Positions 1,689 to 3,268 of a stretch of DNA of 32,000 nucleotides are shown here, in pieces; position 1 is the stretch's first letter; every line of letters begins with the position of its first letter. Both the position numbers and the translations under genes were made by a program. Source of the stretch: Candidatus Helarchaeota ASGARD archaeon Hel_GB_B (GTDB lineage: Archaea > Asgardarchaeota > Lokiarchaeia > Helarchaeales > HEL-GB-B); the NCBI GenBank assembly GCA_005191425.1, contig SUPR01000021.1:1-32000 (forward strand), in the 5' to 3' direction. Below the pieces are notes generated by a model. The model made no database searches, had not been told where the DNA came from, and saw only the letters and a program-made list of their open reading frames with translations.

Positions 1689-2042
1689 TTAAGTTATTGG
1701 TACAAAAATATAAGTATATATTTCTTTTCCATCTAAATCATCACAGATTTTCTCAAATTTTGGTTTTAATTTCATTCCAATTTGTAACCCTTTTTGCGAT
1801 GATATCTGCCCCAGAGCTTTAATTCCATTCTCAAATTCTACTATCCCTAAAGCATAGGATTTTTTATCCCTAAATTCCATTGGAGGGGCATATAAGATAG
1901 TGTATGATATTAATGTAGGAGTGCCAACTACATTGATTTTTTCAAATTTATTGTTTTTACATTTGATACACCTTAAATGGCTTTTATATTGAATAAAGCC
2001 ACATTTATTACATTTAATCCATTCAATCTTATTATCGTCCAT
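1689..2042 (-). CDS. DUF35/ChsH2-type Zn-ribbon + OB-fold protein (thiolase partner)
   Basis: CNKC-x10-CIKC rubredoxin-like ribbon followed by OB-fold (LISYTI...YALGIVEFENGIKALGQI); directly downstream of the thiolase gene. Confidence 0.92.
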   Translation of the reverse strand: MDDNKIEWIKCNKCGFIQYKSHLRCIKCKNNKFEKINVVGTPTLISYTILYAPPMEFRDKKSYALGIVEFENGIKALGQISSQKGLQIGMKLKPKFEKICDDLDGKEIYTYIFVPIT

Positions 2043-2047
2043 TTAAA

Positions 2048-3268
2048 TCACATTCTTTCCACTAAAATTGAAACAATATTATTACCAAATCCGCCAAAAT
2101 TACAAGTTATACCAGTAGTAGCTCCAGAGACTTGTCTTTTTCCTGCTTCTTCTCTTAATTGCCAGAATAGTTCAACAACTTGAGCAACGCCTGTAGCGCC
2201 TAAAGGATGCCCCCTAGCTTTTAATCCTCCAGATGGGTTGATCGGTATTTTTCCACCAATTTGAGTAAGACCTTCACTTGCTGCTTTAGCACCTTCGCCC
2301 TTCTTAAAAAATCCAATATCTTCGCTTTCGACCACTTCTAAAATTTCAAAAGCGTCATGAAGTTCCGCAACATCAATGTCCTTTGGTGTTTTTTTTGCCA
2401 TTTTATAAGCTAGATCTGAACAAGTTCGTAAAGCTTTTAAAGTAGTTATATCTTCCCGTTCATAAATAATATGAGTATCAGTAGCTTGTCCTATACCTTT
2501 AATTAATATAGGAGTATCACAATACTTTTTTGCAATTTCAGCATTACATAAAACTAATGCAGCAGCCCCATCAGAAATAGGACATATATGAAATAATCTT
2601 AGAGGGTCGGCTATTATAGGATTTCTTGAATTATCCTTTAGGAATTCTTTTATATTAGCCCAATTTCCTTTTCCTTTTTTAATTGCACTTTCCATAAATT
2701 CCTGGATGGTTTTTTGAAAATGAGCATAAGGATTTAAAGACCCATTTTTATGGTTTTTTATGGCAATATCATCAAGCCATTCTAATTTGGCATTATATTT
2801 ATGAAGGTAGGCACGAGTCAGTAGTCCACCAAAGGATGGAAGAGAAACACCATGTAAACGCTCAGCTTCATGGTGCGTAATAGTGGCAACAATTGAAGTT
2901 ATAAATCCGGGTGTTGTTATATGAGTCATTTTCTCGCCCCCAACAACTAAGACAAGATCGCTCATGCCCGAAGCAATAGCTTGATAACCTGCTTTAATTG
3001 CAGAACCACCACTTGCAGGGCCATTCTTTATATGGTCAGCAGCAGCGGGAATTAAATTTATTCTGTCTACAAGAGCACTTGCAATTCCAGTATAATTGTT
3101 AAATTTACCCGGACACATAGCCCCAACATAAACAGAATCGAAATTGTCAGCATATGTATTAGAATTTTCTAATGCTTGAAGTGAAGCATCACATAATAGT
3201 TCTAACAGGCCCTCTTTCGACCTACCAAACTTCGTGTGTCCTACTCCAATGATAGCTACGCTCTTCAT
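2048..3268 (-). CDS. Thiolase-fold protein (archaeal/SCP2-type) lacking the nucleophilic Cys
   Basis: VAIIGVGHTKFG start, VGGEKM, ELHDAF, INPSGGLKARGHPLGATG motifs. NGPASGGSA sits where xACASG is expected. Start placed at ATG 3268 rather than GTG 3277. Confidence 0.93.
   Translation of the reverse strand: MKSVAIIGVGHTKFGRSKEGLLELLCDASLQALENSNTYADNFDSVYVGAMCPGKFNNYTGIASALVDRINLIPAAADHIKNGPASGGSAIKAGYQAIASGMSDLVLVVGGEKMTHITTPGFITSIVATITHHEAERLHGVSLPSFGGLLTRAYLHKYNAKLEWLDDIAIKNHKNGSLNPYAHFQKTIQEFMESAIKKGKGNWANIKEFLKDNSRNPIIADPLRLFHICPISDGAAALVLCNAEIAKKYCDTPILIKGIGQATDTHIIYEREDITTLKALRTCSDLAYKMAKKTPKDIDVAELHDAFEILEVVESEDIGFFKKGEGAKAASEGLTQIGGKIPINPSGGLKARGHPLGATGVAQVVELFWQLREEAGKRQVSGATTGITCNFGGFGNNIVSILVERM

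Follow-up and report, generated by a model that had tools for sequence, protein, structure and literature searches.

A cysteine-less thiolase-fold protein and a DUF35 partner encoded beside methylmalonyl-CoA mutase in Asgard archaea, with a possible role in decarboxylation

Gene organisation of the locus

The window analysed here—the first 32,000 nucleotides, read on the forward strand, of contig SUPR01000021.1 from the Candidatus Helarchaeota genome Hel_GB_B (GenBank assembly GCA_005191425.1)—opens with three closely packed genes on the reverse strand that set an unusual thiolase homologue beside a B12-dependent mutase. Read in the direction of transcription, these encode a thiolase-fold protein without the catalytic cysteines of thiolases (positions 2048..3268; 406 amino acids (aa) from its ATG), a 117-aa DUF35 protein presumed to be a docking subunit (1689..2042) and the large subunit of a methylmalonyl-coenzyme A (CoA) mutase (3..1673; Pfam MM_CoA_mutase, E 7.7e-220), of which 557 aa are seen before the contig end cuts the gene. 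The thiolase-like and DUF35 genes are joined as TGA-TTTAA-ATG, 5 nucleotides (nt) apart, and 15 nt that include AGGAGG separate the TAA of the DUF35 gene from the ATG of the mutase gene. Because these junctions measure only 5 and 15 nt, the trio very likely forms one transcript, in keeping with the co-transcription proposed in the initial annotation of this DNA.

A thiolase fold without catalytic cysteines

The thiolase-like protein belongs to the archaeal/SCP2-type thiolase superfamily by its matches to Pfam Thiolase_N (PF00108, E 2.9e-28) and Thiolase_C_1 (PF22691, E 4.9e-43), and its best sequence match in the PDB is 4YZO (ST0096 of Sulfolobus tokodaii) at E 5.5e-86, compared with E 3e-23 and 6e-16 for the aldolases Ltp2 and Sal. 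It scores below the cut-offs of both NF053570 (archaeal acetoacetyl-CoA thiolase; 361.6 bits against 600) and PRK06064 (413.9 against 420). An AlphaFold2 model, built from an alignment of 40 relatives, reached a predicted local distance difference test score (pLDDT) of 96 and a predicted template modelling score (pTM) of 0.95, and by this model the thiolase-like fold is intact. A structure search with the model returned 6ET9/6ESQ (template modelling (TM) score 0.90), 4YZO and 7YVY as the closest folds; Ltp2, Sal and TbSLP stood at ranks 36-40 among the structural matches (Ltp2 at 36, Sal at 39).

Residue 84 of this protein is a proline. Its codon, CCT at 3017..3019 on the reverse strand, is two base changes away from any Cys codon, and phmmer aligns Pro84 with the nucleophilic Cys of 6ESQ (ACASGS) and 7YVY (ACASGG); the earlier reading of a proline at the nucleophile position is borne out, as are the HDAF, GHPLGATG and TCNFGG motifs, all present alongside GPASGG. 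In catalytic thiolases, helix N-alpha3 has the nucleophilic Cys at its N-terminal end (xACASG), and that Cys is missing here; in the model, Pro84 stands just before a helix that begins at residue 86. The second catalytic Cys has also gone, the SCP2/archaeal acid-base motif HDCF reading HDAF, and the corresponding Cys of the classical type (CxG) is likewise absent. In thiolases, the second oxyanion hole is formed in part by a backbone NH at the nucleophile position, and a proline there abolishes it. Both active-site histidines that make up oxyanion hole 1, H304 (HDAF) and H354 (GHP), are kept. Judged by these residues, the protein cannot form an acyl-Cys intermediate; with both catalytic Cys lost, neither thiolysis nor Claisen condensation through an acyl-enzyme would be open to it, and it is very probably not a thiolase.

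The C-terminal TCNFGG Cys sits one residue before the classical CxG Cys position. Val replaces it in orthologues of 57-61% identity that share the same gene order, and across the family the position holds H, Q, A, L or C; being unconserved, this Cys was rejected as a substitute catalytic residue, a role that had been left open for it in the initial annotation. The insertion noted at the outset is real, measuring ~19 aa relative to 4YZO and 6ESQ, and the model renders it with confidence as a pair of short helices. Since a paralogue that still has its Cys (contig C139) contains a comparable insert and orthologues of 71-76% identity (387 aa) are without it, the insert does not go with the loss of Cys and was set aside as a functional hallmark. 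A scan for clade-specific residues lists positions such as H132, L143, L310, S315 and F391.

Conservation and phylogeny

The motif GPASGG occurs in 118 of the 120 best homologues (79-86% identity), whose NCBI records name Loki-, Hel-, Thor-, Hod- and Odinarchaeota, and almost all of the 120 also keep HDAF, GHPLGATG and TCNFGG. GPASG, HDAF and GHP are retained in orthologues at 57-64% identity from two other GTDB families, and GPASG and GHP in those of a third family (~48-50% identity), where HDAF is not reliably scored. Sequencing error or recent decay, a doubt attached to the original reading, is excluded by a codon two changes from Cys and by the presence of GPASG both in these 118 homologues and in other families.

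In a FastTree tree of 149 family representatives, the protein falls within a 36-row clade (local support 100) with no Cys at the nucleophile site in any row; the absence of both Cys across a deep, conserved clade agrees with the suggestion, made from the first reading, that the reaction is not that of a normal thiolase. Pro, Ser, Ala and Phe alternate at the site, with several Pro/Ser switches, and this interchange implies that no nucleophile is needed there. The clade takes in the ST0096-like representative and a group with a haloarchaeal-looking gene neighbourhood, and it also holds ~500-aa forms with a C-terminal tail, which in one of the five such forms scanned (P0150) gave a weak, sub-threshold DUF35 match. 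Among 40 clade members, with identities as low as 37%, H304 and H354 never vary, nor do most of the motifs shared across the family. By contrast, the GHP histidine too is often missing from a distinct second Cys-less clade (Asp/Asn/Glu/Gly types); its retention here speaks for continuing selection on the pocket in the 36-row clade. Literature searches that extended to Cys-less thiolases acting as decarboxylases turned up no work on the function of ST0096 (4YZO) or of its clade, only passing mention.

Eight thiolase-fold genes are present in the source genome: four of the SCP2 type with both Cys, one classical and three Cys-less with HDAF, which as such cannot be thiolases. The two Cys-less paralogues outside the window lie on contigs C169 (~11414-11803) and C121 (~1857-2288); their nucleophile sites read TTGGATGG and ENGGNTGG.

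The DUF35 protein and the mutase

The product of the second gene is a DUF35 (PF01796) protein with a Cys4 zinc ribbon and an OB fold, scoring 38.7 bits against Pfam OB_ChsH2_C (cut-off 27.1), with C11, C14, C25 and C28 invariant in 25 orthologues and its gene adjoining that of the thiolase-fold protein. All solved relatives of the latter bind DUF35 (6ESQ, 7PXP, 5M3K, 6OK1, 9MYR), and by analogy we infer DUF35 binding here.

The mutase carries the substrate residues of the methylmalonyl-CoA mutase (MCM) type, Tyr in RQYAGF and Arg in VARGAYI, both invariant in 18 orthologues; we take these to correspond to Tyr89 and, in the KEY/F-x-x-R motif, Arg207 in the enzyme from P. shermanii. Two other mutases are encoded in the genome, one at C160:23161-24702 (RQFAGF, AQKSW), which by its residues bears the Phe/Gln signature of the isobutyryl-CoA mutase (ICM) type, and one at C182:42932-44488 (RLICG), with a third signature. 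At the related loci L105-L109, the small subunit and MeaB genes adjoin a mutase of the ICM type, not the MCM type.

A natural fusion joins the two proteins. A complete genome from yet another Asgard family has a 697-aa open reading frame (ORF; L110:2846-4939, reverse strand) that links DUF35 in frame to the N-terminus of the mutase via an acidic linker of ~30 residues, and three independent clusters of 684-690 aa that combine PF01796 with PF01642, one of them named Freyarchaeota, were found in a large protein database (P0271-P0273). A complex prediction for the mutase large subunit and DUF35, each with its own alignment, returned ‘no answer’ (score 0.00) and was counted neither way. An apparent thiolase-like/DUF35 fusion in genome G040 (512-aa open frame) was rejected because, under translation table 11, a stop codon lies between the genes.

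Gene neighbourhood across Asgard genomes

Gene neighbourhoods were surveyed in 79 loci from species-representative genomes. DUF35 comes immediately after the thiolase-like gene in 19 loci and lies within 8 kb in 26. Where a DUF35 gene has another gene behind it within the locus (24 cases), that next gene is the mutase in 19. Five genomes have the thiolase-like gene elsewhere, and in all five DUF35 is directly upstream of the mutase orthologue (70-72% identity). Gene order is kept in at least three Asgard families; another Asgard family, with orthologues of 57-61% identity, reads classical thiolase, thiolase-like gene, DUF35, mutase. The expectation of conserved synteny with the mutase stood for DUF35, which lies directly upstream wherever this mutase type is present, and failed in part for the thiolase-like gene, which is adjacent in about a quarter of loci but as a rule occurs in the same genomes as the other two.

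Family f2 (25 genomes) has the thiolase-like gene and DUF35 together in 17 genomes and a Tyr/Arg-type mutase orthologue in 13; all 13 of the latter have DUF35 and 12 have the thiolase-like gene. The mutase depends on the pair, but not the reverse; the idea that the thiolase-like gene strictly requires the mutase was rejected, as seven f2 genomes have the gene and no such mutase. A functional tie between the thiolase-like protein and the adjacent mutase is supported, real but uneven, because gene order is kept in several families, DUF35 lies directly upstream of this mutase type and the two occur as a natural fusion.

The recurrent neighbours of the thiolase-like gene are all acyl-CoA enzymes: immediately upstream a classical thiolase that has its Cys (10 loci), acyl-CoA dehydrogenase with electron transfer flavoprotein (ETF) beta/alpha nearby (18 loci), 2-oxoacid:ferredoxin oxidoreductase nearby (8 loci) and an ADP-forming acyl-CoA synthetase whose gene converges on that of the mutase (9 loci). 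At six loci (L045, L053, L064, L072, L075 and L080), genes for biotin protein ligase and for a carboxyltransferase of 523 aa flank the thiolase-like gene, in most cases after acyl-CoA dehydrogenase and ETF genes. At L045, ~5 kb downstream of the carboxyltransferase (~12000-17200) is nearly devoid of ORFs ≥70 aa, and in the distant Pro-type relative L128 a biotin ligase lies two genes off.

Missing partner enzymes of the mutase

The carboxyltransferase family PF01039 was not found in the source genome (93.7% complete), and the best match there to methylmalonyl-CoA epimerase, at 54 bits, stayed under the cut-off of 115. Across 150 sampled Asgard genomes, PF01039 was present in one of the 37 genomes of the four families with the trio (1/25, 0/5 and 0/6 in the three other than that of the source) and in 12/13, 24/26, 18/19 and 7/7 genomes of Asgard families without it. 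Because the carboxyltransferase is nearly absent from them, the lineages with the trio have a mutase without its known partners, namely propionyl-CoA carboxylase, biotin-dependent decarboxylase or transcarboxylase. A strictly complementary distribution of the thiolase-like gene and the carboxyltransferase was rejected, since it holds at family level only and the two genes, found together at six loci, are not strict alternatives. Some families with a mutase-family match, of unchecked type, have neither.

Comparison with known systems

ST0096 (4YZO)—the best solved-structure sequence match, a top structural match and a member of the same clade—likewise lacks the nucleophilic Cys, but it has Ser at the site where Pro stands here and is without the insert, and its representative in the tree is not beside a mutase, unlike the gene described here. 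The closest fold, that of the archaeal thiolase/3-hydroxy-3-methylglutaryl-CoA (HMG-CoA) synthase complex 6ET9/6ESQ (37% identity), follows the same gene-pair logic of thiolase fold plus DUF35, with DUF35 bridging to a third pathway enzyme; its thiolase, however, has both Cys (ACASG, HDCF) and works through an acyl-enzyme, and its third member is HMG-CoA synthase instead of a B12 mutase.

Among the systems that have lost the Cys, the steroid side-chain retro-aldolases Ltp2-ChsH2 and Sal-Shy (6OK1, 9MYR) consist of a thiolase fold bound to the DUF35 of the preceding-step enzyme, and the DUF35-mutase fusion mirrors the fusion of DUF35 to a hydratase in these systems. They differ in their catalytic Tyr, the first residue of YDHF / YDCY, and in their MaoC hydratase partner, whereas here all reliably scored orthologues read LHDAF, DUF35 is free-standing, the partner is a mutase, the operon contains no hydratase and similarity is much lower. 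TbSLP of Trypanosoma brucei (5AB4-5AB7) is a thiolase fold without nucleophilic Cys that binds malonyl-CoA, but it reads YDCF at the motif, lacks a DUF35 partner, is eukaryotic and shares 19% identity with the protein here. The E. coli operon for conversion of succinate to propionate, sbm-ygfD-ygfG-ygfH, combines genes for a mutase, a MeaB-type chaperone and a methylmalonyl-CoA decarboxylase that needs no biotin; that last enzyme, YgfG, is of the crotonase fold, and the operon involves neither DUF35 nor a thiolase fold. Our literature searches turned up no paper in which a B12 mutase is linked to a thiolase-fold protein or to DUF35, and what appears to be new here, as read from the sequence, is a putative thiolase-fold/DUF35 assembly with a new partner and predicted non-thiolytic chemistry.

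Proposed function and alternatives

The best explanation overall is that the thiolase-like protein is a DUF35-docked, non-thiolytic methylmalonyl-CoA decarboxylase, a prediction to which we give a probability of roughly 0.32. That it works in DUF35-mediated association with the mutase is probable; that it is specifically a decarboxylase is a tentative prediction from gene context and residue arguments. By homology, the thiolase-like protein would most likely form an alpha2-beta2 complex with DUF35. Because DUF35 is dedicated to the Tyr/Arg-type mutase in this Asgard lineage, it probably docks the thiolase-like dimer onto that mutase, as gene order and the natural fusion suggest. The retained His-His site would then carry out cofactor-free decarboxylation of methylmalonyl-CoA, the mutase product, to propionyl-CoA, the two histidines binding the thioester oxygen and stabilising the enolate. 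KS-Q domains and Cys-to-Gln ketosynthase mutants are malonyl decarboxylases. The Cys-less TbSLP decarboxylates malonyl-CoA weakly, with a turnover number (kcat) of 0.005 per s (cited in PMC12329534). The proposed docking follows a pattern described for the steroid aldolases, whose DUF35 domain is part of the enzyme one step earlier in the pathway (PMC12329534), and it is also in line with the archaeal fatty-acid synthase complex (bioRxiv 10.1101/2024.07.05.601840).

Such an enzyme would complete, without a biotin enzyme, a route from 2-oxoacid through succinyl-CoA, methylmalonyl-CoA and propionyl-CoA to propionate and ATP, in which the neighbouring 2-oxoacid:ferredoxin oxidoreductase and ADP-forming acyl-CoA synthetase would take the other steps; because these two surround the trio in many loci, decarboxylation would be the sole step left without a gene. 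The fuller proposal, of a hitherto undescribed three-enzyme complex with a thiolase-fold, biotin-independent decarboxylase that gives Lokiarchaeia, Freyarchaeia and their relatives a full soluble succinyl-CoA-to-propionate route, is a doubtful one. The initial annotation had the pair feeding methylmalonyl-CoA to the mutase; we consider it likelier that the pair takes methylmalonyl-CoA from the mutase, because these lineages are without a carboxyltransferase to make it.

Several observations weigh against a decarboxylase tied to the mutase. HDAF offers no obvious proton donor for the enolate, as far as the sequence goes, and the decarboxylase rate of TbSLP is very low. The source genome encodes 7-8 crotonase-family proteins, any of which is a possible YgfG-type decarboxylase. 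The absence of the carboxyltransferase amounts to at most three or four independent lineages, and at 6 of the 79 loci biotin ligase and carboxyltransferase adjoin the thiolase-like gene. Among f2 genomes without the Tyr/Arg-type mutase, six have DUF35 and seven the thiolase-like gene; in two of these mutase-less genomes DUF35 is followed by the 2-oxoacid:ferredoxin oxidoreductase gamma, delta and alpha genes, which elsewhere lie beyond the mutase. Distant clade members, too, pair with DUF35 and not with the mutase.

A serious, if doubtful, rival to decarboxylation is a non-catalytic scaffold or CoA-ester holder, which would tether or channel acyl-CoA among mutase, oxidoreductase and synthetase or stabilise the mutase. 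The loss of both catalytic Cys, and of the backbone NH of the second oxyanion hole, would suit such a protein. It would also fit the pair's persistence beside the oxidoreductase where the mutase is missing, among neighbours that differ but are always acyl-CoA enzymes, and DUF35 proteins are established scaffolds (PMC12329534; bioRxiv 10.1101/2024.07.05.601840). A mere holder is harder to square with the invariance of both His and nearly all family motifs across a clade diverged to <40% identity, with the frequent loss of the GHP His in the second Cys-less clade, which suggests that the pocket of the clade described here is selected, or with ~80% identity across a class, which points to a tightly constrained function.

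The initial annotation had suggested aldol-type or other CoA chemistry, citing Ltp2; a retro-aldolase or aldolase of that kind would act on a 3-hydroxyacyl-CoA and release propionyl- or acetyl-CoA and an aldehyde. The only Cys-less thiolase-fold/DUF35 enzymes of known function are indeed aldolases, the enolate hole is kept, and the iron alcohol dehydrogenase that adjoins the gene in 5/79 loci could handle the aldehyde. The analogy nevertheless fares poorly, and we consider such an activity unlikely. His takes the place of the Tyr that opens YDHF / YDCY, and this excludes the protein from the Ltp2/Sal family; HDAF also has nothing to match their other catalytic residue (Tyr344 in Ltp2, Cys304 in Sal). 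No MaoC hydratase is a neighbour, the mutase products are not 3-hydroxyacyl-CoAs, and Ltp2 and Sal are remote by sequence and by fold, the protein being much closer to archaeal DUF35-binding thiolases and ST0096.

Epimerisation of methylmalonyl-CoA (2R to 2S and back) via the enolate, linking the mutase to an (S)-specific carboxyltransferase, would make use of the same enolate hole, would supply the epimerase that no gene above cut-off in the genome provides and would fit the six loci with carboxyltransferase and biotin ligase. Most genomes with the trio have no carboxyltransferase, however, so an epimerase there would serve nothing, and no acid/base pair is evident once the HDCF Cys is lost; we hold this role to be improbable. 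A thiolase still working through another Cys, such as that of TCNFGG (C389), is scarcely credible, since that residue, close as it is to the classical CxG position, is not conserved in orthologues, the nucleophile site alternates among P, S, A and F in the clade and scores fall below the NCBIfam thiolase cut-offs (361.6 against 600 for the archaeal acetoacetyl-CoA thiolase model).

Significance

Genes of this kind bear the database name acetyl-CoA acetyltransferase and are in consequence counted as thiolases in reconstructions of Asgard butyrate, fatty-acid and mevalonate metabolism, and in published Asgard reconstructions the presence of biotin enzymes serves as the criterion for propionate metabolism (PMC7015854). 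If the decarboxylase proposal is true, the partner gap would be filled by an enzyme that is docked by DUF35 and works on the product of the mutase, B12 mutase would join the short list of DUF35-scaffolded enzymes and current reconstructions would be wrong in scoring succinyl-CoA-to-propionate fermentation as absent from these archaea. Assigning one member would also give a first functional handle on a clade of 36 clusters that includes a solved structure and, by their gene neighbourhoods, haloarchaeal- and methanogen-looking members.

Other genes of the window

A 114-bp AT-rich spacer separates the reverse-strand trio from divergent mutase-accessory genes on the forward strand. The first of these encodes the B12-binding small subunit of the mutase, with a DGHDRG motif (3383..3796; Pfam B12-binding, E 2.6e-24), and the second a 144-aa B12-binding-domain paralogue (3983..4417; Pfam B12-binding, E 9.1e-11); they are followed by the MeaB G-protein chaperone of the mutase (4462..5442; Pfam MeaB, E 4.8e-89) and an ATP:cob(I)alamin adenosyltransferase (5444..5980; Pfam CobA_CobO_BtuR, E 4.4e-56). 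The paralogue reads GTGNDLNA in place of the cobalt-ligand motif DxHxxG and so is without the His ligand; it could, from its sequence, be a regulatory or cofactor-handling protein, and its pairing with the small subunit recurs in the related loci L002 and L004.

Further along the window, a block at ~9700-13900 has a G+C content of just 17-20% and may be foreign or mobile DNA. It encodes a ParA/MinD-like ATPase (12238-13164) and three ORFs (9721-10347, 10398-12212 and 13214-13894) without any Pfam match.

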